Shown piece after piece: positions 30,240-60,300 of a DNA stretch of 64,000 nt. The position numbers and the translations under genes are program-made. The stretch covers positions 9,497-73,496 of the forward strand of contig JAJYFE010000001.1 of the NCBI GenBank assembly GCA_021785435.1. Direction: 5' to 3'. Positions within the stretch are counted from its first letter, which is position 1, and every line of letters starts with the position of its first letter. The notes beneath the pieces are model-generated. The model was not told the origin of the DNA and did not search any database. It saw nothing but the letters and a program-made list of their open reading frames with translations. Source of the DNA: Planctomycetota bacterium. GTDB taxonomy: Bacteria; Planctomycetota; Phycisphaerae; WQYP01.

Positions 30240-30268
30240 GTAGAAGCGGCGTCGCGCCGCTTTTCTTG
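30240..30268 (+). terminator. Rho-independent terminator (AAGCGGCG-TCG-CGCCGCTT followed by TTCTT)
   Basis: Perfect 8-bp GC-rich stem plus a T-rich tail, seen directly. Confidence 0.6.
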
Positions 30269-30306
30269 GGCCAGATGCACGCTGGCCTGGCCTCTGGAAT
30301 GCATCA

Positions 30307-31521
30307 TTAATAGCCGTGTGCGGTATGCCTACGGGTCTCGACCATTTCCACCAATTGCCAATAAATCGCGCTCTGCATAATTCCAGAAATGGGCAGGACC
30401 TTGACGTCATAGCCTTTCAACTTGAGCAACGCATCATCCACCGCCCAATAAGGATTCAGGTAGATGTGGCGGGGATTGGTGGTGAACGAAGCCGGCGGCG
30501 GGACGCTGCAGGTGAGGATGCAGGCGCCGCCGCCGCGGAGAATCGAATCGATGGGCGGTTCGTTGAAGAGTTGATAACCGAGAACCAGCGCTGTGTCGCC
30601 GGGACCCGATGGCACGGGCGGATGGGCCGACTGAAACCAGGGGGGAGTAGGCCCATTGCGCATCTCGGCGGGAAACATGTGGGCTTCGTATAACACGTCA
30701 ATGGTATGACCGGAACGATGGGCCGCACGGATCCACCGCGCGGCACGCCAGAGGCCACGGCGATCATGGCGCCAGACTTGGCGCAAAGCTGCCGCCACGC
30801 CGGTGAGATAGCGCTGGCCCAGATTCGCGGCGGACGCCGGCGTAACGGTGCTGCGCTGTTGAAAGGCGGCGCCCATCAGTTTAGCGTCGCGTGCCCGCCC
30901 GCCAGGTCGGCCATAGCTTTGATACATGTTGGGCATCCGGCCGTCGTCCACACAGGCTGTGATAAATTCAGCCGTCCAAGCCCACATTCCGATGACGTTA
31001 CTGACGGATGTGGTGCGGATGGACGGGCGCCCTGACTTCCATGTCCCGGGGGCCGTGGACCGCGGGTAAACAGCAGCGAACCGCGCCGGCGGATTCGCCG
31101 GCGGGATACCGGTAAAGAAAATCACGACGCTGTGGGCTTCACGTGCTTTAAGGAGCAGACGGGTCAGCGCCGGTCCCGGCGTGGGGCGTGCGGCTGCCGC
31201 CAGGACTGTGTCCTTCGGACCCAGCACGGTCCCCGGATGATAGGACTTTATCAGCATCAGCCCGCCGGAACGGCCAACGGCCTCCGCGACAAAACTTTGT
31301 TGGCCGCCGGCCACGTACAAATGACCGCCGTGGATGACTTTGCTTGCGGCCTGTTTGGCCGTTGTTTGCAGAGCGGGTAAGGCGGCGCGCCATTGCCCAA
31401 CTCGGTGCAGCAGGCGGGGAATATAAGCTGCAGCGCCCCCGGAGCCGCGCGCCGTGCTGGCCAGCCAGAGCATGGTCCCAACGACCAAGGTGGCCGATAA
31501 AATCCATTTCAAATGCTTCAT
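30307..31521 (-). CDS. Hypothetical secreted protein (signal peptide MKHLKWILSATLVVGTMLWLASTARG)
   Basis: ORF with an N-terminal signal peptide when started at M98; no family recognised. Confidence 0.45.
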   Translation of the reverse strand: MKHLKWILSATLVVGTMLWLASTARGSGGAAAYIPRLLHRVGQWRAALPALQTTAKQAASKVIHGGHLYVAGGQQSFVAEAVGRSGGLMLIKSYHPGTVLGPKDTVLAAAARPTPGPALTRLLLKAREAHSVVIFFTGIPPANPPARFAAVYPRSTAPGTWKSGRPSIRTTSVSNVIGMWAWTAEFITACVDDGRMPNMYQSYGRPGGRARDAKLMGAAFQQRSTVTPASAANLGQRYLTGVAAALRQVWRHDRRGLWRAARWIRAAHRSGHTIDVLYEAHMFPAEMRNGPTPPWFQSAHPPVPSGPGDTALVLGYQLFNEPPIDSILRGGGACILTCSVPPPASFTTNPRHIYLNPYWAVDDALLKLKGYDVKVLPISGIMQSAIYWQLVEMVETRRHTAHGY

Positions 31522-35675: not shown

Positions 35676-36039
35676 ACTTCGGCCTCCGCGCCTACCGGCG
35701 GGGCGGCGGTCCGGCCGTCCCTCATTAATATAATACGGAGCATCGGTGGCATCCGCAGTCAGGGCCTGCGCAAGCCCGGGACGTGACAATTTTTTGCAGA
35801 GGGCCGAACACTATGCCACAGGCACGTAAGATTGGAACCATCGCGGCTGGGGCCAGCGGACCGCCCCTTGGGGGGCGGCCTTCCAGGCGGCCATGGTCTT
35901 GGATCGAGTCGGGCCGATCGCCCCAGTTTACCCGCTGCCGCGGGGCGACTCGCTGCGGTGAGATGCCCGACCCCAGGGGGCCTTTCAACCATCTCTCAAT
36001 CTTGAAACGCGCGGCATACCCCGAAAAATGATCCCACCA

Positions 36040-36500
36040 CCGCATTTGCGACGGCCACTTGACACTTGACATGCGGCTCGCTAGGATGTATTGTTGTTAT
36101 CGTTAACAGACCAATAGGTGACGTTAACATATAGAGTGTGGCCGGTCCTGGAAACGGCGGCCTAAGAGGCTCTTGATCATGCCGGTGACGCTTCGCGACA
36201 TTGCGGATAAAGTCGGGGGCTGCATGATGATGGTGTCGCGGTACGGCGACACCGCCCGATTTGCGACGGGATTGGAACCGGCACTTAACACTTGACATAC
36301 GGCTCGCTAAGATGTATTGTTGTTATCGTTAACAGACCAATAGGTGACGTTAACATAGAGAATGTGGCCAGTCCCGGAAACGGCGGCCTAAGAGGCTCTT
36401 AATCATGCCGGTGACGCTTCGCGACATTGCGGATAAAGTCGGGGTCTCCATGATGACGGTGTCGCGCTCCCTGAACGGTGAAGCGCCGTCGATGGTTTCG
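36040..36500 (+). repeat. Tandem direct duplication (roughly 229 bp, two copies) covering the promoter, operator, RBS and first roughly 20 codons of the LacI-family regulator
   Basis: CACTTGACA(T/C)(G/A)CGGCTCGCTA(G/A)GATGTATTGTTGTTATCGTTAACAGACCAATAGGTGACGTTAACAT...ATGCCGGTGACGCTTCGCGACATTGCGGATAAAGTCGGGG occurs at about 36055 and about 36284. Confidence 0.85.
36292..36334 (+). promoter_or_regulatory. Sigma70-like promoter (TTGACA-17-TATTGT) with an overlapping LacI-type palindromic operator TGTTATCGTTAACA
   Basis: -35 at 36292-36297, -10 at 36315-36320, operator at 36321-36334; a duplicate is at 36066-36107. Confidence 0.5.
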
Positions 36501-37703
36501 CCCGCCTTGAGGCAGCGCATCCGGAAGGCGGCGGAACAATTAGGCTACCATCCGAATGTCAACGCCCGGGCGTTGGCCCGCAACCAATCGATGCTGATCG
36601 GCGTGCTTTATAACGGCGTCAATTTCCTTCAGAGCATGCAATTTCTGGCCGGTTTGCAGGAGGTATGCCTCGCCCGCGATTACGCCCCGCTTTTCTTAAG
36701 CCATCAGAATGCCGCCATGGAGCGGGCCAATCTGCGCCTGTGCCTGCGGCGCAAGGTCGATGCGCTGATCGTCAACCCGTGGGTGGAAAACGAGGATCCT
36801 GACCCATCGCGAATGGGCCGGGACTTCCAGCCGTCGGCATCACCCTACCGGAAAATCGTAAAGTCCGGCTTGCCGATGACCGAGGTTTTTGGACGGCGGG
36901 TTCCCGGGGTTTGCTCCGTGCGCTACGACCACCTTGCGGAGGGCAAGCTGGCCGCCAGGCATTTGATTGAGCACGGCCACCGGCGAATTGTGCTGTTCAC
37001 CCACGCCTGGTACCGGGCCGTGGAAAAAATACCGGGCTTGTGTTTTGACGCCTATGAACAATGGCAGGGCTATGCCGCCGAGATGCGCCGCATCGGCGCC
37101 GAGCCGGTCGTCGTGGCGCACCCACTGACCTTGCAGCCAACCATCCGCAGCGATCCGATGGCATTCCACCAAGCCGCCATGGAGTCCGTCCGCGGCGTGT
37201 TCGATCATCCGGCTGCGCCCACCGCGGTCCTGTGCTACTCGGCGTACCAGGCCCTGGCGGTGCTGAAAATAGCGCAGGCTCGCGGGATCCACGTGCCGAC
37301 CGAGCTGTCCCTTGTCTCCGGCAACGACTTTCCATTCGCCTGGCCTGACGGCCAGCGTCTCACCTGCATTGTCCGGGATCCGACGGAGGCTGGGCGCGTT
37401 GCGGCGAAAACGGTGTTCGCCCAACTGGACACCGGCACCGCGACAGACGCTGCCATCGCGCCGACCCTTCAGCCGGGTGAAACAGTCGCGGACCTAAAAG
37501 CTCAGGCGGTGAAGACGGCACCGCGCGGTTACGGCAAGACTATAACCGGTCAGAGAGTAATCCCCATGCAGACCGATGGCCGGCAGTTTAGTCGCCCGCG
37601 GCGACCCGTGGCGAACGCGATCCGCCGACGCGGTAAACAAGATGGACCGCCCAGGCGCCAAGAACGCTGGGATCAAGCTTTGGTAATGTCAGGAAGCGTC
37701 TGA
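36405..37703 (+). CDS. LacI-family transcriptional regulator (about 80-aa C-terminal tail beyond the usual length, containing a dispersed-repeat motif)
   Basis: N-terminal HTH LRDIADKVGVSMMTVSRSLNG and periplasmic-binding-fold core. No stop until 37703, although the family is usually about 340 aa. Confidence 0.75.
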   Translation: MPVTLRDIADKVGVSMMTVSRSLNGEAPSMVSPALRQRIRKAAEQLGYHPNVNARALARNQSMLIGVLYNGVNFLQSMQFLAGLQEVCLARDYAPLFLSHQNAAMERANLRLCLRRKVDALIVNPWVENEDPDPSRMGRDFQPSASPYRKIVKSGLPMTEVFGRRVPGVCSVRYDHLAEGKLAARHLIEHGHRRIVLFTHAWYRAVEKIPGLCFDAYEQWQGYAAEMRRIGAEPVVVAHPLTLQPTIRSDPMAFHQAAMESVRGVFDHPAAPTAVLCYSAYQALAVLKIAQARGIHVPTELSLVSGNDFPFAWPDGQRLTCIVRDPTEAGRVAAKTVFAQLDTGTATDAAIAPTLQPGETVADLKAQAVKTAPRGYGKTITGQRVIPMQTDGRQFSRPRRPVANAIRRRGKQDGPPRRQERWDQALVMSGSV

Positions 37704-37833
37704 GGTATAAGGAGTCCCGCCATGTAGACACATCAAAGTCATCCGCGTAGTGGTTCCGTTTGGAAAATCCCAAAGGCTCGCCGTTCGCGGAGTCGTTACG
37801 GCGGCAGTTCACCTTTTTTCAAAGGAGTCGCTC

Positions 37834-39225
37834 ATGTTTGGTTCACTGAAAATGGATCGCGGAGTCGCCAAGGCGACGAACTTAACCTTGGGTACTGGTA
37901 ATACTGGCTCTCTTTTAAAGGAGATTACAATGCGAGCGTACCAAAACATCCAATTCGTAGTCGCAGCCGTGTTGTCCCCCGTTACCTGGCTGCTTACTGC
38001 GGTGGCCCTGCTGCTGAACTCCATGGTGCTGAGCCTGGCCCGGGGACTGGGCGCCTACGGCGACCTGGAATCCCTGGTCAGTCGCGCCGGATTCCGGTCG
38101 TGGCGACGCCGTTTCAGAGGCGCGTTGGCGTTTACCCTGATCGAGCTGCTGGTAGTGATATCAATAATAGCTATTCTCATATCTATATTACTTCCAGCAT
38201 TGGCCAAAGCCCGGGAACTGGCCAACCGCGCGGTCTGCATGGCCAATATCCGCGGGATCATCCAGTCCATGGTGACCTATGCTCAGTCGAACGACGGCAC
38301 CTTCCCGGCCACGCCAACCGTCCAGTCCCCCGGCGAGGTGGGCAACGGGCCGGATTTGCCGAACAACTCGGCCATCTCCGGCCAGACCGCCCAGGAAGTG
38401 ACGGCACTGTGGTATTACAACATGGTCTACCCAAGCGGCCCGCCGGTCACCCCGCTGGCCTGCATGTGGCTGCTGGTCCTCGAGGGTTACGACGCGCCGG
38501 CGAGCTTCGTGTGCCCATCCGATCCCTTGGCGCAGGGGCCGTCGCTGGAATACTGGACGCCGCCAAGCAACGGCTTCACCAGCGCCACCTACGTAGGCAA
38601 CTTCGGGTTAATGTCCCCGACCCAGGCTGTGGCGAACCCTGTCAACGATGTCGGCGCGGGGGAGAGCTACTCCATCGCTTTCCCTTGGCCGACGGAGTAC
38701 GACGCTGCGATAGGGGCGAACAACATGATGCCGGCCCAGCCCGGCCGCTGGTGGACCACGGACGGTGCGGACAGCGAGGTTCCGCTGGTCAGCGACATGG
38801 CGCCGGTCGATGGCGGCGGCGCAAGCACGGTCTCCTTGGGATCCGGACCGGGAACTGGCGCCTTCCAACGCGTCACGACCACGCTGCCAACGGCCAACAC
38901 CTATGGGCCCTATATTTACAACTCCGGCAATCATGCCGGCGACGGCCAGAATGTGGGTTTTGGCGATGTTCACGTCACTTGGGAAACTTCGCCCTATGTG
39001 GGCGAAAATGGTGATAATATTTTCACCTACACCACCGCCACGGGTGTGGTCAATGGCACCACGGACACGAATCAGAGGGGGACGTCGGGGTACCCGGGAT
39101 ACCCGCCGACGGGGTACGGCGTGGTGCCCTACTACATCAAGACGCTGGCCCCGCCCTTTGACATCTGCATGGCGCCGGTGCGCACGGTAAACCCGACCAC
39201 GGCGTCGCAGAACATTGCGTGGTGA
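37834..39225 (+). CDS. DUF1559 domain protein with a prepilin-type N-terminal methylation motif, preceded by an unusual roughly 100-aa N-terminal extension
   Basis: [43 protein letters not shown] plus the C-terminal [12 protein letters not shown] motif typical of DUF1559. AGGAG precedes ATG 37834; an alternative start is 37930. Confidence 0.7.
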
Positions 39226-43400: not shown

Positions 43401-43724
43401 CCCAGATTCCGCACCACGGTGCCATGGGGTTCACGGAGATCCCAGCGCGGCGAAGCCGCAACCAAACACATAGCCCCCGGCTATGCCGGGGCTAGCGGGT
43501 CCGCCGGGCAGACAAAGTTTGCTATCGAACCAAAATCTTCGCACGGCGCAAGGATTTTGATGGATTGTGGCACGGAGAAATAAGGAGCTGCGAACTTTCT
43601 AGGATTAAATCCCGACGACCATCGGGACTTTCCGAAATCTCGGTATCCCGGCGCACCGGGATTAATTTCAACAACCTCGGCGAACTCTCTGTGGTGAAAT
43701 ATCGGGGTTAGACTGATTTCACGG

Positions 43725-47034: not shown

Positions 47035-48060
47035 AGGGGGAGAGTTTACCCCACGGTGGCGTGAGTTAAAACAGGAGCCGCAGACGGCGGCCGGCGAGCC
47101 AGGGGATGGGCAGGTCGGTGTTCTGAAAGCCGGCGGCCAGCAACAGTGGGTTATGGGCGCGTTTCTGGAACCGTACATCAATGAACTGATCGCTGATGGT
47201 CACGGTGGCTGTGGCGTCCGCAAAGTCATCAAGAACCCGTCGGGCCCTGGCCGTGCTGATAGCCGTGGCCGAGGCGCACCGCCAGGAGACGGTACAAGCT
47301 GCTGGCGATCAAGGTGAATTGGAGATCACCATCCACCGTCATGGCCACGGCCGAGGACAGGGCATCCAGGCGGAAGAAGTCGATGCCATCCTCAATGGTA
47401 TTCTCGATAATCATGCGTTGCGCGTACCCTCCGATGAGGGTGGCGGGCGACCGGCGCAGTTGGTTGGCCAACAATAAAGCGGGGGACTCGTGGCCCAGTT
47501 CGGTGATGCCGATCTGGCGCATGCGGTCGCGGTAATCGGGCAGGCTCACGGTGGCGTCGAGGATGCGTGGAATGCGGTAACGCCGGGCCAGGTTGGCCAG
47601 TTCGATGCGTCGCCAGGTGGTGGCGGGGTGTTGGGGCGATCTGGCCGAGCAAAGGGGCCGTGCGTCGCCGCAGGGTAATAAAGTTGATGCCCTGCCGGTT
47701 GAGCCGACCGAGATTGCCATAGGTGGTCAGGCAGGAATCGAAAATCAACTCCCTGGGCCGCTGGCCGGTGCGTTGCTTCCAAAAGGCGATAAAATCCAAA
47801 ATGGCGTCATTTTGCTGGTCCTTACGCAAACTGGCGTCGGCATAGCAAAACACCTGGGTGTGGGCGTCTTGCGCGAAGAAGGCCAGGCCCCCCCCTGTCG
47901 ACGGCTGCGTTTGGAAACGTAGTGTTTTTCCACCAGGGCGTCGTCCCCGTGAAAAGGGATGGTATGGAAGTCCAGATCAAAGGAATCCCCGTGGCGTAAG
48001 CCCCGCTTCCGCGCGGCCGCCAGCCGGCGGGCCGGAACTTGGCCGACTACAAGAGTTCTC
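47035..48060 (-). mobile_element. Transposase remnant of the IS4 superfamily (IS1634/IS1380/IS701-like), N-terminally truncated, with at least three frameshifts, one at an 8-C homopolymer (47888-47895)
   Basis: Frames read ...LDFHTIPFHGDDALVEKHYVSKRSRRQ / VFCYADASLRKDQQNDAILDFIAFWK... / ...YAQRMIIENTIEDGIDFFRLDALSSAV...LYRLLA / ...RAHNPLLLAAGF...IPWL. Confidence 0.6.
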
Positions 48061-48767
48061 TGCGTGACTGGGCCGTCCAGGCGAAACAGCGTGGCTTCCG
48101 GGCGGCGAAATTAGAGGCCAGTTTGTTCGGACCCTATGCCCATGGTCGGCTCAACGAACCGGAAGCAGCGCTGGTGGAGGTGATCGCGGCGTGCCGGGAG
48201 GCGGTCGGGCGTGATTTCACCCTGATGGTGGATGTGCAATACGCCTTCTCCGACGCGAAAAAGGCGTTGCGCATTCTCAAACAACTCGAGCCTTTGGACC
48301 TTTTCTTCATTGAAACACCGCTATGGATTGACGATCTGGACGGCTATGCGTTTCTGCATGAGAACTTAGGTATCCGCGTGGCGGCCGGTGAATGGCAGAC
48401 CACGCGTTTTGAGTTTATCGATCTGATGGATCGGGGCCAGGTGGATGTGGCACAGCCGGATGTGGGCCGCGTGGGCGGTTTGACCGAAGCCAAGCGGGTC
48501 TGCGACCTGGCGGCCGCCCGGGGTCGGCTGATTGTGCCGCACTGTTGGAAGACCGGCATCGGGATCGCGGCCTCGGTGCATCTGGCGGCGGCGACGGGGC
48601 ACTGCCCCTTCGTGGAGTTCCTCCCCGCCGCCCAGTGCGATGCCCCGTTGCGCCGGGAACTGGTTCAGGAGGAACTGCGCATGCGGGACGGTCGCCTCGC
48701 TTTGCCGACCCGCCCGGGCTTGGGCATTGAGCTGAATCGCGAGGCGCTGAAGAAATTCGCGGTTTGA
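48039..48767 (+). pseudogene. Mandelate racemase/muconate-lactonizing (enolase-superfamily) enzyme: C-terminal barrel domain only, with the N-terminal capping domain missing at the IS junction
   Basis: KxK...D...E...D metal-ligand barrel (AAKLE...MVDVQYAF...FIETP...DVAQPD...) is present. The first roughly 120 aa are absent, and the ORF begins exactly at the IS remnant. Confidence 0.6.
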
Positions 48768-48931
48768 CCGAACGCGGCGCTGTAGTTTTGTCGCCCGCGG
48801 CGACCGCTGGGCCATGAGATAAAGACCGCAGGTACCTCATGGTCCCGATACCTCGGGACGCGCCGGGTTTGGGCTTGCGACGGCCATCCGGACCCGTGGT
48901 TGCGGCTTAGCCGCGCGGGGCTTTCCACCGG

Positions 48932-50185
48932 CTATGGAAACACCCGCACAACCAGTGCGGAATTCTTGGCGCCGAAGGCAATGCAGTTGGCCAGGACCCA
49001 GGCTGGGACTTGGGTGGGGCGGGCGTGCTGGGGCACATAATCCAGATCGCACTCCGGATCGGGATCATCCAGGTTAATCGTGGGATGAATAAAACCCGCA
49101 CGCAGCGACAGAATCGCGGCGGCCACGCCGGCGGCGCCGCAGGCGCCCTGCGGATGACCGATCATGGATTTGGTGCTGCTCATGGGAATCGCCCCGGCGC
49201 CTGGGCCTAAGGCCAGCTTGAGGCTCTGGGTCTCCAGCGCGTCATTTAAAGGCGTGCCGGTGCCGTGCAAATTTACATGGCTCAGGTCGACCGCGGTGAT
49301 CCCGGCTTCGCCCAGGGCCAGAGAAATCGCGCGGGCGCTTTCCACCGCATCCGGCGCGGGGCGGACCCGGTGCCAGGCGTCGCAGGTGGAGCCCCAGCCA
49401 CACAACTCCGCCAGCGCGGGAGTGCAGCGTTGCTCGGCATGATCCGCCTCTTCCAGTACGAACATCCAGGCCCCTTCACCCAGGACGAAGCCATCGCGAT
49501 CGCGGTTGAACGGCCGGCTGGAGCGTTGGATTGGTTCCACCGGCCCGGCCAGGATCCGCATCAGCTCGAAGCCCTTGAGGGTACCGGCGGTGATCGGGGC
49601 GTCGGCGCCGCCGACCAGCACCATGGGCACGTCACCGCGCTGAATGTGCCGATGGGCATAGCCAAGCGCATCCGTGCTGCTGGTGCAACCGGTGCTGATC
49701 ACGTGCGAAAAACCGCGCAAACCCAGGGCAATGGAAATTTCACTGGATAAATTGCCCATCGTTCCGGCGGGAATGGTAAACGGAGAATATTTGCCCCGGC
49801 CCGTGAAAAAAGCGCGATACTGCGGCTCCAGGAAATCGATTCCCCCACCGCCGCTGCCCAGGATCACCCCGATATCCCGGCGCCCCTGCCGGTCCCCGGG
49901 TTCCAGATGCACCCGCGCCATGGCCAGTGCTTCCCGGGCCGCGGCCAGGGCCAAAGGCACCAGGCGGGGCACGCGGCGCCTATCACGCTCGTCCAATACC
50001 CCGCGGGGATCAAAGTTTTTCACGGCGGCGGCGAAGCGAACTTTAAGGCCCGTCGTATCGAACGAATCAATCCAATCGATGCCGCTGGTCCCGCGGCGCA
50101 GGCTCTCGGTAAAGACGGCTGCGCCAATTCCATTGGGCGCCACGACGCCAATTCCCGTGATGACTACGCGGCGGTTGAGGGGCAT
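48932..50185 (-). CDS. fabF: 3-oxoacyl-[ACP] synthase II (KAS II)
   Basis: Active-site Cys block ISTGCTSS, and His/His blocks (GHPQGACG; NCIAFGAKN). Start MPLNRRVVITGIG. Confidence 0.9.
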   Translation of the reverse strand: MPLNRRVVITGIGVVAPNGIGAAVFTESLRRGTSGIDWIDSFDTTGLKVRFAAAVKNFDPRGVLDERDRRRVPRLVPLALAAAREALAMARVHLEPGDRQGRRDIGVILGSGGGGIDFLEPQYRAFFTGRGKYSPFTIPAGTMGNLSSEISIALGLRGFSHVISTGCTSSTDALGYAHRHIQRGDVPMVLVGGADAPITAGTLKGFELMRILAGPVEPIQRSSRPFNRDRDGFVLGEGAWMFVLEEADHAEQRCTPALAELCGWGSTCDAWHRVRPAPDAVESARAISLALGEAGITAVDLSHVNLHGTGTPLNDALETQSLKLALGPGAGAIPMSSTKSMIGHPQGACGAAGVAAAILSLRAGFIHPTINLDDPDPECDLDYVPQHARPTQVPAWVLANCIAFGAKNSALVVRVFP

Positions 50186-50250
50186 AGGTCGCTCCGGACG
50201 GCCCGCGTGAGACATGCTAAATCCGGCTCTCCAGAGCACCGTCGATATCG

Positions 50251-51105
50251 TCAGGGGGCTTGGTCCGATTGCTTGCGCGGAGCTCCGACCTCGGCCTGCG
50301 GTTCGCGGCGCCCATAGCGGGCCAGCAACTTTCGTCGCCATCGAATCATAGGCTGGGCCACGCGGCGATGGGCGCGAATGTACCAACTGCGGTCTTCGGC
50401 GCGCTTAAAATCATCCGCGGTGCACGCCTGCGGGGCCAGGCGTGTCTTGTGTTTATAGTAATGGTACCAGTCTTCCGCCTGCAAGCGGCGCAACAACCAT
50501 CGGGCCAGGAAATGATCGCGCGCGCCGCGCCGGCACAGAAACGAAATCTGAAAGTCGATCAGGTACGGCCGGCCGTCGGAGCCGTACAGAATATTCTCCC
50601 GCTTATTGGTGTCCACGTAGGCCACGTGGCGTTCGTGCACGGCCTGCAGCAATTCCCGCAGCGCCTGAAAAAATTCCGCTCCGGCGCCAAGCCCTGGCCG
50701 CAGATCCTCCCCCGGGATAAAAGCGTGGACGTATCCGGTCGTGCCCCAGGTCCCCAGAAACGTCGGAATCCCAGGCACGCCCTGCAGCGCCTTCAGAACA
50801 GCGACCTCGTGCCGCGCCGCCAGCCGCCCCAACCAGCGCAGCGGCAAGCCCTGGAAGGGCTGCGTGCGCTGAACCTTCAGCACCGCCAGGTGGGGCGATT
50901 CGGTGGCCATGGGCAGGTCCGCGCCGATTTTCCGCGCGTACAACCCGGTGACGGCAAAAAAATCGTGCTTGAAGGTTCGCACCAGCTGCCAGCGGTCTCC
51001 AGCGATTTGAATTTCCGCCGGAAGCGAGGCATAGCCCAGGGCGAAAAAACTTGCCGGCGGCTGGCGCGGAATCTCGGTGGAGCGGCGCCGGAAAAATGCG
51101 GGCAT
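50251..51105 (-). CDS. Protein-kinase-like fold protein (Kdo/lipopolysaccharide kinase or RIO-like)
   Basis: Catalytic-loop-like HVAYVDTNKRENILYGSDGRPYLIDFQIS. Start placed at MPAFFRRR; the upstream ORF extension is non-coding. Confidence 0.5.
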   Translation of the reverse strand: MPAFFRRRSTEIPRQPPASFFALGYASLPAEIQIAGDRWQLVRTFKHDFFAVTGLYARKIGADLPMATESPHLAVLKVQRTQPFQGLPLRWLGRLAARHEVAVLKALQGVPGIPTFLGTWGTTGYVHAFIPGEDLRPGLGAGAEFFQALRELLQAVHERHVAYVDTNKRENILYGSDGRPYLIDFQISFLCRRGARDHFLARWLLRRLQAEDWYHYYKHKTRLAPQACTADDFKRAEDRSWYIRAHRRVAQPMIRWRRKLLARYGRREPQAEVGAPRKQSDQAP

Positions 51106-51677
51106 AGGCCTACCTACCTTCTTAAGATGTCTATCGTCGCGGATCCGCCCACGCCGATTCCCGCACGCCGCCGTCGCGAAGCGCGCCGAAGCCTCTGCCC
51201 CACGCCCGCTGCACCCAACGCCAAAACGACCCGTCAACTTCCTCTTAAAATAACAACTCGCCAAGAAAAAGGGCGACCTGAAGGGACCGGATGGCGACTC
51301 GGTGGCGTTGCCGCCACGAGCGTAAATGGATCTGCGTAGCGCGAACCAGTCCCCCGGGACACCGCATTTTAACGCGGTGAAGGGTGCATGACAGATTTGG
51401 CGCCCGTGCCGTTCCCAGTGCGCCCGTTTTGCGCAGCGAGGTAAGGACGGGACGTGATTGTACCGCACACGGCTATTAATGATCTATTCCAGAGGCTGGG
51501 CCAGCGTGCAACGGGCCCAAAAAAGCGGCGGGACGCCGCTTCTACTTTGACGAATGGTACGTCTCAATAGGAGCGGTGTGTCGTATATCATAGCCCGGCG
51601 GTCGCCGCGGGCGACTAAACTGCAGCGACGGGTGACGCCGGGCGAACTACCCCAGCCCGTGAACGGTTACGCGAAAC

Positions 51678-52253
51678 TCAGCGCAGCTTCGGTTCCAGCA
51701 CCGATTGCGTGCGAATCACAACCCGCGCTTCGCCGAGCAGATGAAAGCCTTCCACATGGATTGCACGCCGATGCAACTGCGCCACCAATACCGACAAATA
51801 TTCGGTTTGGCCTAATTCATTGCGGCGATGCGAAAGCACCGCGGCTTGTTCCTCCGCTAAACGCAGCAGCTCCTGCACGGAGTTCTCAAAAAGTGCCTCG
51901 GAGATGTGCTCCTCATTTAACGCCAGGTAGTAGTGGTAATCCTCGCCCAGCGGAAGATCGAACAGCTTATCACCCTTGCAGGGCAGGCGCTCCACCAAGC
52001 CACGCTCCGGCAGGTTGGTGTTCGGAAAGCACGCCACTTCAGAAATCATTTGCGGTCCGCAGATGGCCGCCATATGGCCGCCCCCCGCCAACAGCCAGAG
52101 GTTGATATCAAACTCTCCGAGCGACTTGGTTTTGCGTGCATCGGCGACAAAAAGCTCGGGATGCAGGATGCGGTCATAGATTAACACCGACAGCCCCGCG
52201 CTCCGCGGCTTCTTGTGATGAACACCGCCCGCCGATTCCCTTCTGGTCTTCAC
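51678..52253 (-). CDS. Hypothetical protein
   Basis: ORF only; followed 3' by a copy of the AGTTTAGTCGCCCGCGGCGACC motif. Confidence 0.4.
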   Translation of the reverse strand: MKTRRESAGGVHHKKPRSAGLSVLIYDRILHPELFVADARKTKSLGEFDINLWLLAGGGHMAAICGPQMISEVACFPNTNLPERGLVERLPCKGDKLFDLPLGEDYHYYLALNEEHISEALFENSVQELLRLAEEQAAVLSHRRNELGQTEYLSVLVAQLHRRAIHVEGFHLLGEARVVIRTQSVLEPKLR

Positions 52254-53126
52254 GTTGTTTCCTCGCGTCCTTTTTTGCGGGCATTTCCCGCGGCCAATCT
52301 TTCACGCTTTCGTCATCCGGGTGCCGCCGGATCACGGACAGACTTCCGCGATGGGAGACGCCCAAGCGCCTCTGAACCGCCAACCATGCCGATGTTCCGC
52401 AAGCTGATTTTCCGCCGTCCATGGCAGTGGCGGGGCTCGCACCATTCCGGGCTGGCTCGCCGAGGCGAGTCACCTTCGCACATCGGTGCGATTAACGTAA
52501 CATACGGTTCGCACCGTCAGTCAGTTCATTATTTTACCCCGTCGTCAGCCAAAATGGAAGCAAAATCCTGCAGAATTCATCCACCTATTGAAGCTTTGGC
52601 CCAAGTTCCCGTATTTTACCGATAATTCGACTTGGCTTTTGAGCAAAGTCCCGTTCCCATTGCCTTCCGCAGGGCGTTACCGCACCTCAACACCGCCGCA
52701 AATACCACGGAGCGCAATTTTATATAACCTATTTCTAAATAAGTAGTTACATGCTGATGGGGCAGGAAAATGGTTCCAAACCAAGCCGAGCTGTCGGAAA
52801 ACCATCGGCCATTATCTCCAGCGGCCGATCATTAAGAAGCACAGCCATTGCCATCGGCATATCCGAATGATAGGGGATGGTTATTGGCTGCTGTTCCCAA
52901 GTCGAACGTGGCCCACTCCGTTCCGAAAACTGAAGACTGACTACCCGGCGGCCAAGTTGGGGCAGAGCATAACGCCGCCCCGGGCTCGGGATGCGTGCCG
53001 GCGATTTTCACGCCAGCTCCAATAATCTTGTGCTGCTACCGTTGGGCCGATAAATCCGAAGAATCGGCACATAAAAATTGAAAACGCCCGGTTGCCGATC
53101 CCCGCCACGCGCTCTAACATGCCCGT

Positions 53127-53651
53127 ATGAGCAATTTCATCAGCAATGGCCGGATGCAGCGCGTGCGGGAGCATTGGCAGGCTACGAATGCCATCATCTG
53201 CGGCGATGTCACCATCGGGGCGGACTGCGGCATCTGGTTCGGCGCCGTTATCCGCGGTGATGTGGCGCCGATAACACTCGGCAAAGCGGTGAATGTGCAG
53301 GAAGCCGCGGCATTACACTGCGATCTCGGCGAGCCGCTGGTTATCGGCGATAAGGTGACCATCGGCCATGGGGCAGTGGTGCACTGCCGGTCGGTTGGGG
53401 CTGGAACATTGATTGGAATCAAGGCCGTCGTGCTCGGCGGCGCGGTCATCGGGGCTGACTGCATTGTGGCCGCCGGGGCAGTGGTTGCACCCGGGACCCA
53501 GGTCCCCGACGGCCAGGTGGTGATGGGCGTCCCCGGCAAGGTGGTGCGGGCGGTTCGCCCCGCCGAGTTGGAGCAGATGCGGGCCAACAATCGCCATTAC
53601 GTCGAATTGGCCGCGGCCCATGTGCTTGAACCGGAAAGGTACTACCGGTGA
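53127..53651 (+). CDS. Gamma-class carbonic anhydrase family / hexapeptide-repeat protein (YrdA/PaaY-like)
   Basis: Left-handed beta-helix hexapeptide repeats and conserved His ligands (ALHCD...GHGAVVH). Confidence 0.85.
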   Translation: MSNFISNGRMQRVREHWQATNAIICGDVTIGADCGIWFGAVIRGDVAPITLGKAVNVQEAAALHCDLGEPLVIGDKVTIGHGAVVHCRSVGAGTLIGIKAVVLGGAVIGADCIVAAGAVVAPGTQVPDGQVVMGVPGKVVRAVRPAELEQMRANNRHYVELAAAHVLEPERYYR

Positions 53652-54106
53652 CGCCCGCCATCAACCCTCTGTTCTGGCTAACTCTGCTGATGCGCTGGAT
53701 GCACATTGGCTCGGCGATCATTCTGATCGGGGCTGTGGTATTCATGCGTTTCTTTCTGCTGCCCGCCGCGGCCAAACTGGACGCCGAAACCCGTCAGGCG
53801 TTATGGGACCGGATCAACAAACCTTGGCGGATGGTTCTCGGCCTGGTTATTCTCACCCAAATCGGCTCCGGCGTGTATTGGCTGCTGGCCGTCGTGGACT
53901 TCAGCGCCCAGCCCGCCATCTATCGCCTGTTCTTTACGCTAAAAATGCTCGCCGCCCTGGCATTTTTCTTCTTGCTTTCCGTCCTGGCCGGTCGCGCTCC
54001 AGCCTTTGAAAAATTCCGCCAGGAAAATAAAACCTGGCTCACGGTCTGCGTGACCCTGGGCGCCTTCATCATCGCCTGTGCTGCGGCCATGCATCTGATC
54101 CGCTAA
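53648..54106 (+). CDS. Small integral membrane protein (4 TM, CopD/DUF2214-like)
   Basis: Four hydrophobic helices; ATG overlaps the upstream stop (translational coupling). Confidence 0.55.
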   Translation: MTPAINPLFWLTLLMRWMHIGSAIILIGAVVFMRFFLLPAAAKLDAETRQALWDRINKPWRMVLGLVILTQIGSGVYWLLAVVDFSAQPAIYRLFFTLKMLAALAFFFLLSVLAGRAPAFEKFRQENKTWLTVCVTLGAFIIACAAAMHLIR

Positions 54107-54164
54107 ACCCGATATCCCCCGCCACGGATGAAAATCAAGTCAGAATATTTTTCCTTTTGCCTTT

Positions 54165-54650
54165 TTACTTCGCAACACCCCCGCTATTATCCTGCCAGGC
54201 TCCTATGCGCTGCGCCAAGCCGCACGGATTTTCAAAATGCACAACTAAGCCGCTTCCAGTTCGCCGGCCGGGGCGGTGCACGTCATGGCTGACCACCACT
54301 TTCACGCCGTTCGGATGCACACGTCGGAAGACACGGAAATTACCCGGGTCAAAATCAGTCGCGGACCACTGGCATTCGATCGCCACCGGATCACCCTCGC
54401 GCGGCGCCCACATGAAATCAATCTCGTGCTTCGACTTGTCACGCCAATAGCTGATGGTACGCCGCCCGGCGACCGCATGGAGCTCGTTAAGCACCAGGTG
54501 CCCCCAAAGCGCCCCGACGTCCTGCGGCCGCAGGCTGGTCCAGCCACGGTGAAAGCAGGCAAATCCAGTGTCAAAGCCGTAGATCTTGGGAGCCGCGATA
54601 ATCTTTTTGGGTTTGTTCCCATGGAGCGGCCGCAAGATGTGGATCACCAT
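54165..54650 (-). pseudogene. C-terminal DUF4143 fragment of an AAA+ ATPase; the N-terminal ATPase domain is missing at the IS5 junction
   Basis: KIYGFDTGF...ELHAV...ISYWRDKSKHEIDFM...AIECQWS matches the DUF4143 C-terminal module; no Walker motifs are present. Confidence 0.6.
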
Positions 54651-54674
54651 GGTCTCTTCCAGCGCGCTGACGTA

Positions 54675-55546
54675 GAGTCTCTAATAAAAAGAACGTATAT
54701 AAGTTTAATTGGCGGTTGGACAAGGAGGTCTAATTATGGCCCAGCAATTACTGGACGACGATTTATGGAAGTTGATCGAGCCGATCTTGCCAGCACTGAA
54801 ACGCAGGCGATTTCGATATCCAGGGCGCAAGCCCATCGACAACCGCCAGGCACTCCAGGGCATTCTATTGGTGCTCAAGACCGGCATCCTTGGGAATATC
54901 TGTCCCAGAAAATGGGGTGCGGCTCCGGCATGACCTGACTGGCGGCGTCAGCACGATTGGCAACGGTGTGGGGTCTGGCAGCAGTTGCACCAGGTATTGC
55001 TCAGCAAACTCCGCGAAGCCGACAAGATCGACTGGTCGCAGGCGGTGGTGGACAGCACCTCGATTCGCGCTGTTTTTGGGGGGCGCAGACCGGCCCAAAT
55101 CCGACGGATCGACAGAAAAATGGGAGCAAACAGCATGTTCTTACCGGCGGCCATGGCATTCCGAGGGCCATCACGTTGACGGCCGCCAACCGACATGAAG
55201 TGACGTAACTGCTGCCCTTGGTCGATGCCGTACCCTCGGTGGCCGGCAAAGCGGGCCATCCACGGCACCGTTTCCCACGTGCGCAAGGAGACCGGGCCTA
55301 CGATTCCGAACCCCATTGGCGCGAGCTTCGCCGGCGCCGGATAGAACCCGTGCTGGCCAAACGCCGCACGGCCGTGGCCTGGGTGTTTATCGCTGGGTGG
55401 TGGAACGAACCGAGAGCTGGCTGCACCAGAACCGGCGACTTAAAATCCGATACGAACGACGCGCCGATATTCCGATGGCGTTTCTGAAATGGGGCTGTGC
55501 CTTGATCTGCCATCACTATCTCAAAAGTTCATTTTGTTAGAGGCTC
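54675..55546 (+). mobile_element. IS5-family (IS427/IS1031 group-like) insertion sequence, 872 bp, with roughly 20-bp imperfect terminal inverted repeats; the transposase is split by at least four frameshifts (decayed copy)
   Basis: IRL GAGTCTCTAATAAAAAGAAC and IRR GTTCATTTTGTTAGAGGCTC. Transposase blocks LLDDDLWKLIEPILP / PWEYL / AVVDSTSIRAVFGG...GPNPTDRQKNGSKQH / ADRAYDS / RWVVERTESWLHQNRRLKIRYERRADIPMAFL appear in different frames. Confidence 0.75.
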
Positions 55547-55647
55547 TTAACAGCGGCGCGACGCCGCTTGTATCATGGTTGCCACGGTTGCCATGGAATT
55601 CAGTCACGCCCCACCTGCTGGTCGGACTAATCCCAAGCGTCCAGCCA

Positions 55648-57040
55648 TCACCTGCCGCCGGCGCGTTCCAACGGGGCGGCGATGATGGCGTCGAGGTCGG
55701 CGATACGTTGACCCTGATCGGTACGCAGGTCAGCGATGGTTTGCCGCGTGTCCAGAAGCATATGCTCGGTTTCCAGTTGACTTTCCACACCTCCGCGGCC
55801 CTGCTGATAATCCGCCCGGTCCAACGCGGCAATCTCTTTCAGCCGTGGCTGAATATGTTGAGCGAACAGGATGATTTGGCGGTGATCATTCCGCAGGGCA
55901 ATCAGGTCGATCAGCAGCCGGGCGGCCAAGTTGACTTTCTCCCGGCGCAGCGCGGCCTGTATGGACCGAAGCTGATTTTGGGTCTGGGCGATGGAGGCGT
56001 TAATGGCCTGATAACGCAGCCATGGCGCCACCAGATCACCGGTGAAGTTCTGTACGGCGCCGTCGAGGGAGGTGGAAAAGCCCAGGTCAAAATTGGGAAG
56101 GTATTGCATCTGGGCGCGGTGAATGTCCAGACGGCCAGCGGAAACCAAGCGATGAAGACCGCGTAAGGCTGGATTACGCTGCATGGCCAGGATCAAAAAT
56201 CCACGCTCGCTCAAGGCTGGACTGCGCGTAACAGGGATCGTCGAGGGCGGGGTCAGAGGCGCCGCGGCGGGACGCCCCAGCAGCGCGTTGAGGCCGGCCA
56301 ATTCGAACTTTAGTTGATGGACGAACTGTACAATTTCCACGCGGTGATTGTCAATACGATTTTGCAGTGCCAACAGCTGCCGCGGTGGCTGGCCGCCGGC
56401 GCCAACACCGGCGCGAAGCAAGGCCGCCTCCATTTCCAGGAGCCGTTTCATGGCTCTGGTTAGCCGGAGCTGTACGGCGGTGTTGGCGTAGTCATACCAA
56501 GCGAAAAGCACCGCGCGCCGTACTGCGAATATTTTTGCGCGATAGCGCCAGCCCGCGGCACGGGCGGCCTGTAGCGCGGCGCGGGCCTGGACCGACAATT
56601 TCGACGGCCAGCGAATATTGTATATCGTGTCGCCGGCGCCCAGAATGGTGTTGGCCAGCGCGGCCTGACCGTTCTGAAGGGTCGTACCGGCGGTAAGCAT
56701 CAGCGTGGCCGCTTGTGTACCGGCTTGGGGAATTTCCTCAATAGCCGCCCGCCATTTCCAATACGCCTCTTCCACGCCGGGGTTATTGAGCACCGCATAC
56801 TCAATCAGTTGCGGTGCGGTGGCATCCAGCGGCAGCGGTGGTAAGTGACGCTGGGCATATGGCTTTTGGAATGGCTTGCCCGCCGCCGCGGCCTGCCGCC
56901 GCAAAGCCTGTTCCCCGGTGGGGTGGATGGTGCAGGCCGGCAGCAGGACCAGCAGCAAGCCCAGCAGACCCAAAAGAGTATAAGGTGCTTCGGCGGCCGC
57001 GCTTAAGACACGAAGGCGCGAAGACGTGAAAGGGTATGGC
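55648..57040 (-). CDS. Outer-membrane efflux factor (CzcC/CusC-like, TolC family lipoprotein) of the heavy-metal RND system; start uncertain, with no in-frame ATG near the lipobox LLPAC
   Basis: OEP repeats through the C-terminus. The ORF extends upstream (overlapping the RND gene) only as Arg-rich non-coding sequence. Confidence 0.65.
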
Positions 57041-57329
57041 CAGATTTTGTGGGTGGGGGCACCCGAGGCGGTGCTGCACTCTGCCCCGGTCCGCGCGGAG
57101 GCGGAGGAGTTCAGTCGCCCCGGCGAGCTCCAGCGAACTTGTGCTAAGCCGCAAGTCGCCGCCGAGAGACCGATAGGCGACTCGACAAGGCGAGCGGCTG
57201 GGCAGCGGAGGCTGTGGTTGGACGGCGCTCCGGCTTTGCCACAAATTATGGCCACGCCCGACACGAAATAGCGTCCGGGGGAAACCGCATGGGGACGGCT
57301 GCAGACGATATTGTGGCGCTGGCGCCTGA

Positions 57330-60300
57330 TCATGGTTGACCCTCCTTTCCGCGGCTGGGGTTGCTTCCCGCCAGCGCGGCCGGCTGGTGCTGGCGCCGGA
57401 CTTGATAATTCATGGCCACCAGATAAAGCGCCGGCAGCACCAACAGTTCCAGCACAAAGGCGCTCACCAGTCCGCCGATCATCGGAACCGCCAGGTGCCG
57501 CATGACATCGGCGCCGGCTCCCTGCACCCACAGCAGCGGCATCAGACCGGTCAGCGCCGCGGCCACGGTCATCGTCTGCGGCCGAATGCGGCGCACTGTG
57601 CCGGAATAGACCGCGTCGTAGCAGTCACCCCTGGTATTCAGGCGTCCCTCGCGCCTCGCCGTGGCGAAACTGACATCCAGATAAACCAGCAATACGACCC
57701 CCATTTCCACGGCCAGCCCGGCCAGGGCGATCATGCCCACCCACACGGCTACGGACATATGGTAGTGCAGGAAGTATAAAGCCCAGACGGCCCCGACCAG
57801 CCCGAAGGGAACGGTCAGCAGAATGGCCAGCACGCGCGCTACGCTTCGGGTGGCCACGAATAGCAACATGAAAATGACCCCCAGTACCAGCGGAACGATC
57901 AGCTTAAGACGTGCGTTGGCCAGTTCGATTTGTTTGTATTGGCCGATCCAGGCATAGGTATAACCCGACGGCAACACGACCTGACGCTGAATCGCACGGC
58001 TGGCGCGTTGGACATATCCAACGGTGTTGGTGTCGGATATGGTCAAGTTGATGTAATTCACCGTCATCGCATCCTGGCTGTCGATTTCCGGAGGGCCGGG
58101 GGAATAGTGAAGGTTGGCGACCATGCCCAGCGTGATGTCATTTCCGTTGGGAGTTTGGATCGGCAACTGGCGCAGCGCGGCAAGGTTACCTCTGAGATTG
58201 CGCAGATAGCGCACATTGATTGGGAAACGCTCCAGACCGATGACTATGGTGCTGATCGGCTTGCCGCCGATGGCCATGGTGACGATTTTTTGCACCGCCG
58301 CCTGGGTCAGCCCGTAGCGGCCCGCCTTCACGCGGCTGACGTGGATATCCAGGTAATAGCCGCCGACCGGTTGGTTGGCGATGGCGCTTTGCGTACCAGG
58401 CACCTGCTGGAGCACTTGAGCGATCCGGTTGGAAACTTTTTGCAGCGTCGCCAGATCTTCTCCGAATACCCGAATGCCGAGCAGCGTTTTGCTGCCGGTA
58501 TTGGCCATGTTGACGCGGTTGGCGATGGGCATGGTCCAGTAGGCCTGAAAACCCGGAATGTTGAGAGCTTCGTTCATGCCCTGATGGAAGACGCCGTGCC
58601 CGTCGGTCCAGCCGTGCATCACCTGGTTAAGGGTAATATGCCGCCAGTTCGGCCAGAACGTATGTTTAAACGGCCAGGCCAACCAACTCAGCCCGTGCGG
58701 CCAGGAATCGTAGAAACGCGGAATGCGGATGCTTGGCCATTGGTCGCGCCGATCAAGCCGGATAATCGTGTCGATCATGTTCAGGGGCGCGGAATCGGTC
58801 GCGGTATCGGCCCGGCCGATCTGGCCCCAGACACTTTTCACTTCCGGAAAACTCTTGATGATCTTGTCGCTCTGTTGCAGCACGTATTTGGCCGTGCCTA
58901 CGCTTAGGCCCGGATAGGTGGTGGGCATATATTCCAGGTCACCTTCGTAGAGCGGCGGCGTGAACTCCGTGCCCAGCCGCGCCCAGGGCCAGAAAATGGA
59001 CGCGGCCAGCGCCAACGCCAGCGGAATAACCACCCAACGTCCCGCGATGGCGAGCCGGAAGATGGGCGTGAACACGGCTTTAAGCAGCTTGCTGATCGGA
59101 GAATGTTCTTCGTGGATGATTTTCTGCGGCAGAATCAGCAGCGCCGCTAAAACTACCCAACCTCCGCAGAGCCACCCCTGGTAGCGAGCCATGATCCCAT
59201 GTTGGCCAACGGCGTAATATAAACCGGCGGCCGGCAGCGTGATGATGGCCAGCGCCGCGAGACCCTGGACCCACCAGGGCCACTTTTTCGGAAAGAACCG
59301 CGGACTGATGAAATAAATCATCAGCACGGGGACAATCGTGATGGAAAGCAGCGCCGCCGAAGCCATGGCAAAAGTTTTCGTCAACGCCAGCGGACCGAAC
59401 ATCTTGCCGCTTTCACCGGGCAGAACAAAGATGGGCAGGAAGCTGATGGTGATAATCAGCAGGCTGAAGAAAAGACTGGGCCCGACTTCCTGGGCCGCTT
59501 CGAGCATGATTTCGAGGCGCGCGCGCGGCGGTTGGCCTTCCCGCCGCCGTCGGTCCTCGCGGTTCAGATGCTGGTGGGCGTTTTCAATCATCACAATGGC
59601 GGAATCCACCACCACGCCGATGGCGATGGCGATGCCGCTTAAGCTCATGATGTTGGCGCTGATGCCCAGAAAGTAAAGGATGCCCAGGCTGATCAGCATG
59701 CTGGAGGGAATCACGGTGACCGCGACCAGAGCGCTGCGCCCATGCAGCAGGAACAGCAGGCACACCAATGCCACGACCAGGATCTCCTCGCGCAGCGTAT
59801 CGGAAAGCGTGGCGATGGAGCGATTGATCAGATTAATGCGGTCGTAACCCGTTTTGAATATCACGCCGGGCGGCAGGCTGCCAGCGATCCGCGCTATCTT
59901 CTTTTTTACCGCGGCAATAACCCGGTAGGTATCCGCACCATAGCGTACCACCACAATGCCGCCGACCACTTCGCCGCGGCCGTTCCAATCCAGAATACCC
60001 AGCCGTTGTTCCCCGGCGGTTTGCAGCGTGGCAACTTCCTTGAGGAATATGGGAACGCCATTTTTCCCTAGGCCGACCGGGATATCACGGAATTGCGCCA
60101 GGTTCTTCAGATAGCCGCGGCTGCGGACGATGTATTCAAAACCGCTGCGATCCACCACCGAGCCGCCGACATCGTTATTGGACTGCTGTATCGCGCGGAT
60201 CACCTGGTTCACGCCGAGGTGATAGGCCCGCAACTGATTGGGATTGAGGACGACCTGATATTCCTTTTCAAATCCGCCAATACCGGCCACTTCCGATACG

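Follow-up and report, generated by a model that had tools for sequence, protein, structure and literature searches.

The stretch of DNA considered here (the window) comprises 64,000 nucleotides (nt) of a Planctomycetota genome (assembly GCA_021785435.1, contig JAJYFE010000001.1, positions 9,497 to 73,496), and its intergenic DNA is pieced together from numerous repeat families. One of them, hereafter called the core, is a short element in which a hairpin of the form GTCGCC-NNN-GGCGAC directly follows the tag AGTTTA. A preliminary description had pointed to it as a 22-nt motif recurring just downstream of genes, and both the recurrence and the hairpin behind AGTTTA are real. The 22-mer pattern AGTTTAGTCGCCCGCGGCGACC, with three mismatches at most, is matched four times in the window as against 0.00 times in 100 dinucleotide shuffles, and the bare palindrome GTCGCC-NNN-GGCGAC, with one mismatch at most, nine times where 0.68 matches are expected. 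A calibrated covariance model made from 54 distinct copies and run on the window without filters ranks highest, at E<=1e-3, the matches at 37582 (+), 51597 (-), 7692 (+) and 48781 (+); those at 16898 (-; hairpin only) and 7573 (-) follow at E of about 0.06-0.08, and that at 57105 (+) at E 0.3. By this model the core is present in 6-7 copies in the 64-kb window, to which two long variants are added.

Two copies have the exact consensus. Copy D (37585-37606, +) reads AGTTTA-GTCGCC-CGC-GGCGAC-C, scores 41.6 bits and lies within the open 3' tail of a LacI-family open reading frame (ORF; 36405-37703), with the next ORF 144 nt downstream. Copy F (51600-51621, -) stands 57 nt past the stop codon of a DUF2617 gene, in sense, and is nested in a repetitive extragenic palindrome (REP) of the class-3 type described below, CCCGTCGCTGC[core]GCCGGGCTATGA, the composite spanning about 51584-51650. 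Copy E (48784-48805, +) has one mismatch (tag AGTTTT) and begins 17 nt past the stop of an enolase-superfamily ORF, in sense and in a convergent gap; its host is of the same type, with a degenerate left arm, and the composite (48772-48821) is 86% identical to that of copy F. Copy B, the only one whose coordinates had been given wrongly (7681-7702), stands at 7695-7716 (+) and reads AGTTTAGTCGCCACGGCGACC, effectively with a 5-bp stem and a 4-nt loop, and it fills the loop of its host, a GTTGCGGC...GCCGCA hairpin (7686-7724). Its head-to-head partner, copy A (7576-7597, -), is a degenerate AGTTTGGTCGCTCACGGCGACC with three mismatches and T.G in the stem, and is hosted by a member of the 'GGAGGCGGA' family, which occurs a second time at 57084-57118. 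Copy C (16900-16915, -), 39 nt past the stop of a tolC-like ORF and in sense, had been counted as a near-identical copy; the hairpin and trailing C (GTCGCC-CGC-GGCGAC-C) are present there, the AGTTTA tag is absent, and the match scores 19.5 bits over model positions 10-26. A further degenerate copy (57108-57128, +; 15.7 bits) combines the tag AGTTCA with a broken stem, GTCGCC..GGCGAG.

The regions 18681-18722 and 35925-35958, originally taken for longer variants of the motif, keep AGTTTA and continue with a different hairpin, CCCRC-TGCC-GCGGG, all inside an outer GTCGCC/GGCGAC stem. In variant G (18684-18716, -), AGTTTA (18703-18708) and CCCAC-TGCC-GCGGG occupy the loop of this outer stem; in variant H (35917-35949, +), an outer ATCGCC/GGCGAC stem encloses AGTTTA (35925-35930) and CCCGC-TGCC-GCGGG (35931-35944). 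Both are parts of one 65-nt repeat, present at 18659-18723 and 35910-35974 with 88% identity. Hairpins with a GTCGCC/GGCGAC stem, a CGA...TCG foot and loops of 6-15 nt also occur at 1651-1668, 15503-15544 and 57143-57184, two of them being 90% complementary copies, and it is a hairpin with this CGA...TCG foot that variants G and H use as their outer stem.

The core is not confined to the window, of which the part 51535-54131 is 99.8% identical to a contig of the Planctomycetota metagenome-assembled genome (MAG) FK5.bin10. Scanning one genome per species with the pattern AGTTTAGTCGCC-N2-4-GGCGACC returned at least 54 loci, most of them (at least 37) from the related Planctomycetota MAG YP1.bin19. 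Other loci among the matches listed belong to Chthoniobacterales (Verrucomicrobiota), Phycisphaerales, Pirellulaceae and an Acidobacteriota MAG in which four copies are clustered; chance could account for a few single matches. The same 22-mer is found in several phyla, set in many different flanks. No match was obtained in the IMG/VR viral contigs scanned for the motif, nor in a full-text literature search for its sequence strings. In the Acidobacteriota cluster (L001, 2142-2523), four co-oriented cores lie within 380 nt, inside a longer tandem-like repeat.

Anatomy of the core and its position relative to genes

Across copies, AGTTTA, GTCGCC, GGCGAC and the trailing C are unvarying, the loop of 2-4 nt and all flanks are free, and the core measures 20-22 nt, with AGTTCA, AGTTTG and AGTTTT as variants of the tag. 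A perfect hairpin of at least 5 bp directly follows AGTTTA in 74 of its 140 occurrences in the window and the related loci; for 16 control hexamers the share is 0-9%. Seven by-catch copies have another class of stem, AGTTTA being followed by CCCGC(C)-loop-(G)GCGGG; two stem positions are changed on both sides in this class, sometimes in flank families that also carry GTCGCC copies. In a Phycisphaerales MAG (L035, 6690-6735), a GTCGCC-class and a CCCGCC-class core stand in tandem with 5 nt between them. When the stem was checked for covariation among copies, the switch to CCCGCC/GGCGGG proved to be the sole compensated change, possibly a single event. Within the GTCGCC class there is none, and single mismatches of every kind occur (T.G, A.C, C.A, G.G, C.C). 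Nor do the stem mutations of degenerate copies favour wobble pairs (G.U) on the motif strand. Single-hit mutations of all kinds without wobble preference are the pattern of decaying DNA repeats. Rfam 15 gave no match at the gathering score anywhere in the window.

A census of gene contexts took in 83 full-length model matches from the window and loci related to it, 344 kb of sequence ascertained by the motif. Only one copy is intragenic, though about 68% of this DNA was called coding; some, such as those at 37585, 18684 and 57108 of the window, fall in the tail or a 5' extension of an ORF. In co-directional gaps, 15 copies are in sense and 12 in antisense (binomial p=0.70), 18 copies occupy divergent gaps and 6 convergent ones, and the remaining 31, which have a called gene on one side only, divide into 15 in sense and 16 in antisense. 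The preference for sense positions at gene 3' ends that had been proposed for the motif is therefore absent from this census, and the gene-end explanation fails by the criterion given along with it. The four window copies on which the proposal rested, said to lie within about 60 bp past a stop in sense, are reduced to three, namely those at 48784, 51621 and, without a tag, 16915, since the LacI copy lies inside its ORF, 98 nt before the stop at 37703.

An intrinsic (Rho-independent) terminator was rejected because the copies have no T-run, a scan for terminators and promoters near copies E and F flagged neither of them, and there is no bias in orientation or toward 3' ends; the preliminary description had likewise judged the motif, from its lack of a U-tract, not to be a canonical intrinsic terminator. 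A canonical hairpin with a T-run lies at about 51520-51545, 60 nt from copy F, inside another repeat. The window holds a dispersed repeat of about 120 nt (30206-30325, +, and 51461-51579, -; nearly 90% identical), one copy of which abuts core F; it contains a canonical terminator-like hairpin with a T-run, AAGCGGCGTCCCGCCGCTTTTTT, and a part of it, GGTACGTCTCAATA, recurs in YP1.bin19. With regard to gene ends, the core is unremarkable: it is a repeat dispersed over the DNA, and no novel type of terminator.

Nesting of the core inside other hairpin repeats

Empty forms of the surroundings of the core were found by searching the flanks of each core with the core taken out. At least five unrelated host repeat families, from two phyla, have filled as well as empty paralogues. 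In every family the core replaces 3-6 nt of the empty form, at or beside the apex of the host hairpin, and it has a single orientation relative to each host family. In host (a), which carries copies E and F, the empty form CCCGTCGC-TTACGC-TCCGGGCTATGAA corresponds to the filled form CCCGTCGC-TGC-[core]-TCCGGGCTATGA. The empty form of host (b) is CCCCGCGC-TGACRC-KTGGGGCTATGAA, that of host (c) GGTTGCGGC-TKC-GCCGCGCTGGG (filled examples being window copy B, L030 and L032), and that of host (d), a repeat of Chthoniobacterales, GCCCTCGGC-TGCG-CCTCGCGCTG; host (e) is a GTAG-tagged REP. Empty hairpins of host (c) stand in the window at 7633-7654 (+; GGTTGCGGC-TGC-GCCGCGCTGGG, the host of copy B minus the core) and 43441-43463 (-; GGTTGCGGC-TTC-GCCGCGCTGGG), and a similar one, GGTTGCGGC-TTA-GCCGCGCGGGG, at 48898-48919 (+), about 90 nt downstream of copy E.

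On the opposite strand, hosts (a) and (b) read as a REP of Planctomyces limnophilus, ACGAGCCGGAAGCGTCAGCGACGGGC, listed in Table S1 of Quentin et al. (2018, PMC6006769), where the REP-like hairpins of class-3 TnpA_Y1 were described. These hairpins, of which CAGAGCCGCGACCGTCAGGGAGCG of Solibacter usitatus is another example, are conserved across phyla, in Planctomycetes and Acidobacteria; they are weak, of the form GC-GTNA-GC with tandem mismatches, and have a 5' CnGA foot (PMC6006769). The host flanks CCCGTCGCTKACGCTCCGGG carry the weak hairpin and CnGA features of this class, and the core itself is without them. Among the 54 copies of the window and the YP1.bin19 lineage, 21-22 have a class-3-type REP as host, 7-8 a GTAG REP and 8 host (c), with 13 in two further families. 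In the fold of copy F, the 5' arm of the host, GTCGC(TGC), is able to pair with the 3' arm of the core, GCGGCGAC. Host and core have the arms GTCGC and GCGAC in common, and these can pair with one another; class-3 REPs may, as far as sequence indicates, have been both the cradle and the main host of the core.

Where copies adjoin, 8 pairs are head-to-head, 2 tail-to-tail and 6 direct, and singlets outnumber doublets. The spacers of four head-to-head pairs measure 40-41 nt; that of the A/B pair of the window (7573-7718) measures 91 nt. Presence and absence of the core can also be compared at one orthologous site, upstream of the transposase gene shared by L028 and L055 (loci with 88% mean column identity in a pairwise alignment): L028 reads CCCCAAG[GTCGCCGCGGGCGATTAAAC]TGCAGCG and L055 reads CCCCAAG-TGTCAGCG, the difference being exactly the tag plus the hairpin.

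HUH-Y1 genes beside cores in related genomes

Genes for tyrosine transposases of the HUH-Y1 kind, to which the REP-associated tyrosine transposases (RAYTs) belong, were sought with a motif regular expression over all six-frame ORFs of the window and the loci, and then with a profile of 14 class-3 proteins. The six-frame search found one ORF with NHVH...YVLLEQ, at 3722-4411 (-) of L028 in YP1.bin19. Its protein scores 26.5 bits against Pfam Y1_Tnp (cut-off 23), matches the NCBI REP-tyrosine-transposase model with a score below the cut-off of that model, and has about 2,000 homologues, many of them named RayT by the Joint Genome Institute (JGI). It has the elements NHVH, WT and YVLLEQ of the class-3 TnpA_Y1 signature, published as NHVH, W[TA] and YV..EQ (PMC6006769). 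Five to six cores lie within about 450 nt of the gene, arranged as class-3 REP doublets, and the downstream doublet folds as a long hairpin (-40.8 kcal/mol, z=-5.8). A 90%-identical homologue, found by protein search alone, is encoded in L055, with 2 cores within 150 nt downstream of the gene. This L055 gene stands beside a DUF4276 gene, which is followed by an AAA_15/AAA_21 ATPase gene (1103-2898), the two resembling a defence pair; L028 has a 249-aa ORF in the matching position (2701-3450), and synteny with L055 is suspected.

The profile search found a second Y1 gene of YP1.bin19, at 2747-3320 (-) of L051, which encodes a class-2-like RAYT with EHVHVV...IRYVEENPV (49 bits against the NCBI RAYT model, below its cut-off). 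This gene lies between two GTAG REPs, the upstream one (about 3400-3440) empty and the downstream one (about 2565-2600) with a core. Canonical GTAG REPs (e.g. GTAGGGCCGATGCCCTCATCGGCC) are present in the related genomes also at 1-60 and 781-840 of L055 and at about 1609 of L036. These GTAG REPs are a family separate from the core. Since they and a class-2-like RAYT are present, the AGTTTA core shares these genomes with two or more REP/RAYT systems.

Possible origin and significance of the core

The core recurs in many copies, is extragenic, has no orientation bias, occurs in filled and empty nested forms, is present or absent at one orthologous site and adjoins Y1 genes. We consider it reasonably probable that it is a REP-like, non-autonomous tagged hairpin repeat of the DNA level, spread probably through HUH-Y1 chemistry on single strands; that the core itself is mobile, and which enzyme moves it, is what we infer from these observations. 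The unit consists of a 5' AGTTTA, a 6-bp G+C stem, a free 2-4-nt loop and a 3' C, is dispersed in the extragenic DNA of a planctomycete and of other bacteria, mainly of the Planctomycetes-Verrucomicrobia-Chlamydiae group, and would act, or be parasitic, at the DNA level. The 20-22-nt core would be gained or lost as a discrete unit at the tip, or close to the tip, of other repeats that form hairpins, among them class-3-type and GTAG REPs, giving nested mosaics like bacterial interspersed mosaic elements (BIMEs) and head-to-head doublets like REPINs. Its likeliest mode of propagation would be the cutting and joining of single-stranded DNA by a HUH-Y1 tyrosine transposase of the RAYT kind, for which the class-3 and class-2-like Y1 genes of the sister genome, flanked by core-bearing REPs, are candidates; the apex of an extruded hairpin would be a natural single-stranded target.

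This explanation agrees in many respects with the REP/REPIN systems of RAYTs (TnpA_REP), for which E. coli REPs and BIMEs, Pseudomonas REPINs and the GTAG and CGTC REP superfamilies serve as reference (PMC3733652, PMC3116915, PMC2817692). Like them, the core is about 20-35 nt long, has an unpaired tag beside a G+C-rich hairpin, and is present in many extragenic copies as singles, inverted doublets and mosaics, occasionally inside reading frames. In relatives, copies that sit inside other REPs lie around single Y1 transposase genes, an arrangement that may correspond to a REPtron. Most of what characterizes REPs, a short imperfect palindrome (20-40 nt) in many copies, extragenic and in regular inverted doublets, is found here. 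Unlike known REPs, which are lineage-specific, one 22-mer is common to several phyla; it typically lies within the apex of other REP-type hairpins and not beside them, and its cognate RAYTs are candidates only. An AGTTTA-tagged hairpin nesting inside other REPs is a new variant relative to known REPs. Class-3 REPs share with the core their taxa, their cross-phylum occurrence and a Y1 gene of class-3 signature beside cores, and the flanks of copies E and F and of about 40% of the copies of the lineage are a class-3 REP read on the other strand (CCCGTCGCTKACGCTCCGGGCTATG); the core differs from them in replacing the GTNA-loop region. Table S1 of PMC6006769 contains no REP with an AGTTTA hairpin, its sole AGTTTA match being unrelated.

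Other mobile elements resemble the core in part. The ends of IS200/IS605 insertion sequences carry a subterminal hairpin and a short guide-like sequence that a HUH-Y1 enzyme reads on single-stranded DNA, and insertion is orientation-specific and produces no target duplication. The core is likewise a hairpin with an adjacent short guide-like sequence, as in these elements and their miniature derivatives, but it is a single hairpin of 20-22 nt, for which no pair of left and right ends, cargo or target tetranucleotide was found. IS1397 and ISKpn1 target the loops of palindromic-unit REPs, so that, as here, a REP hairpin apex holds foreign DNA; the insert here is, in contrast, a 21-nt hairpin without a transposase gene. 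Three further candidates were rejected: a miniature inverted-repeat transposable element, which has terminal inverted repeats, target-site duplications and a length of 50-500 nt, because the core measures 20-22 nt and shows no duplication at filled/empty junctions; a CRISPR array, because copies are dispersed on both strands and the sole cluster (L001) has irregular 45-151-nt spacers with an intervening sequence that is itself repeated; and an integron attC site, on its anatomy.

Several observations weigh against a REP-like repeat moved by a HUH-Y1 enzyme. The tag of the core is AGTTTA and not GTAG (GTRG) or CGTC, and since this defining tag is absent the core is not assigned to an existing REP family; as compared with class-3 REPs, it has a perfect 6-bp hairpin and an AGTTTA tag and no CnGA foot. 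An exact insertion junction or target motif is not definable, the left junction being variable and 3-6 nt of the host being replaced. No Y1 gene was found in the window by the motif expression or the 14-protein class-3 profile, and no core near class-3 homologues that are 40-54% identical, at 89 loci amounting to 244 kb of genome and JGI metagenome sequence, where published class-3 REPs (in 21 loci) or other hairpins occur; a general link between class-3 enzymes and the core therefore does not exist. Because REPs of two RAYT systems contain the core, it may lie close to Y1 genes only indirectly, through these REPs, and either enzyme is, on sequence grounds, a candidate and not an established partner. 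The census of gene contexts used crude gene calls, GC3-based (third-codon-position G+C) and with over-extended starts, and covered the window and motif-ascertained loci of mixed related genomes. At copies E and F, no indel separates window 48677-59651 from the six public contigs that match it with 99-99.97% identity. Finally, the fixed orientation of the core in each host family would also result if it had been inserted once, long ago, and the composite had then been amplified.

The last points lead to the main alternative, in which the core is not self-mobile and is an apical variant that arose once per host repeat, or once in a class-3 REP, and spreads only with the host REP or REPIN, empty forms being older lineages or the outcome of replication slippage that deleted the hairpin. 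The fixed orientation would follow directly, and the replacement of host nucleotides without a clean interruption, the uniformity of copies E and F among strains and the pairing of the host 5' arm with the core 3' arm, which hints that the core arose from a class-3 REP, all fit. Against it, the identical 22-mer is present in at least five unrelated host families and in phyla with unlike flanks, which requires repeated transfer of the core alone, and the orthologous indel removes the tag and the hairpin exactly, not the palindrome alone. We therefore regard such passive spread as unlikely. A bolder form of the favoured explanation is that the core is a minimal mobile unit, a 'REP within REPs', inserted in one orientation into single-stranded apices, including REPs of two RAYT systems, moved in trans by a class-3 HUH-Y1 enzyme and passed between Planctomycetota, Verrucomicrobiota and Acidobacteriota. 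This proposal is tentative, and we hold it to be rather doubtful as a whole.

The remaining explanations are poorly supported. That the core is bound by a DNA-binding protein of the host recruited to many intergenic regions, for instance a regulator acting as a dimer or a factor of nucleoid structure or DNA topology, would suit a 6-3-6 palindrome typical for dimeric proteins that is extragenic in 82 of 83 copies, and E. coli BIMEs bind IHF (integration host factor) and gyrase. Such a site is nevertheless improbable, because the loop is free in sequence at 2-4 nt, the conserved tag is asymmetric, the second stem class preserves pairing and not sequence, copies decay like neutral repeats, and the core is nested in other repeats and present or absent at otherwise identical sites.

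An RNA-level element, that is, a 3' stem-loop stabilizing mRNA or a site of factor-dependent termination, as the preliminary description had considered, is quite improbable. The stem is stable and G+C-rich, as in terminators and REP-type mRNA stabilizers, three window copies stand 17-57 nt past stop codons in sense, and E. coli REPs can protect upstream mRNA and stabilize its 3' ends. Unlike such elements, the core has neither a U-tract nor an orientation bias (15 sense against 12 antisense) and is frequent in divergent, promoter-side gaps (18, against 6 convergent); the terminator scan was negative, a canonical hairpin with a T-run lies near copy F, degenerate copies show no G.U preference on the motif strand, and no Rfam family matches. 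A transcribed copy just past a stop (48784, 51600) could, by analogy, incidentally stabilize an mRNA 3' end, which, given the census, cannot account for the distribution of copies. The preliminary description had also suspected a tie to mobile DNA, a suspicion that was well placed, in the form of a target site of a mobile element; that the core is merely the preferred target of an insertion sequence is highly improbable, because, although IS1397 inserts in loops of palindromic units and IS110-family elements target REPs, no insertion sequence or larger insert interrupts any of the 83 copies, and the copies are themselves the repeated segment that is apparently gained and lost.

Some genes beside the copies, and other repeats of the window, deserve mention in their own right. 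The LacI-family ORF (36405-37703, +) reads through core D without a stop, and its Pfam domains end at residue 360 of 432, so that about 70 C-terminal residues come from repeat-containing sequence; its start overlaps a 195-nt direct repeat (36046-36240 and 36272-36466, 92% identical). The tolC-like (OEP) ORFs (16955-18925, -, and 55648-57333, -) contain repeats in their first 250 nt or so, namely variant G and 57084-57184; the public gene call of the second starts at 57333, overlapping the stop of an acrB-like gene, and the repeats may be in-frame coding sequence or the true starts may lie further downstream. The enolase-superfamily ORF beside core E (48000-48767, +) has the C-terminal domain only (MR_MLE_C), the N-terminal domain not being in frame, and a frameshift or pseudogene is possible. 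ORF 37750-39225 (+) has a prepilin-type N-terminal methylation motif and belongs to a large multi-copy family of the lineage, as paralogues with 69-87% nt identity occur in six YP1.bin19 loci. At 4365-5440, arrays of CTCCTG-type short repeats with a 201-207-nt higher-order period and internal inverted symmetry overlap ORFs on both strands. Two further repeat families of the window are the hairpin families CACCGCGTT(G/T)AAACGCGGTG (203-229, 7381-7407, 10033-10332) and CACCGGGCTAAAGCCCGGTG (1452-1607, 10212-10249, 11153-11216); in L011 and L024 of YP1.bin19, the loop of the former holds a GTCGC..GCGAC-type hairpin, a further case of nesting. The public contigs L145-L147 all start at window 48677, about 100 nt before core E, and this shared break point of three independent assemblies suggests that repeats fragment MAG assemblies.

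For annotation, the core and its hosts are to be seen as repeats that break the assemblies of these MAGs, and labelling copies as terminators or small RNAs is unwarranted. REP elements and RAYT enzymes are well studied in Proteobacteria; to our knowledge, the class-3 HUH-Y1 proteins of Planctomycetes and Acidobacteria have no characterized substrate. The core offers a sharply defined 22-nt candidate substrate for them, with a tag, a stem and a free loop, and the natural series of filled and empty sites bears on whether a lone hairpin can move and whether hairpin apices are targets. If the notion of a 'REP within REPs' were true, no smaller transposable DNA would be known, and the core would live as a parasite on other repeats that are themselves non-autonomous. 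Its nesting, its identity across phyla and its link to uncharacterized class-3 Y1 proteins make it a concrete and testable system.

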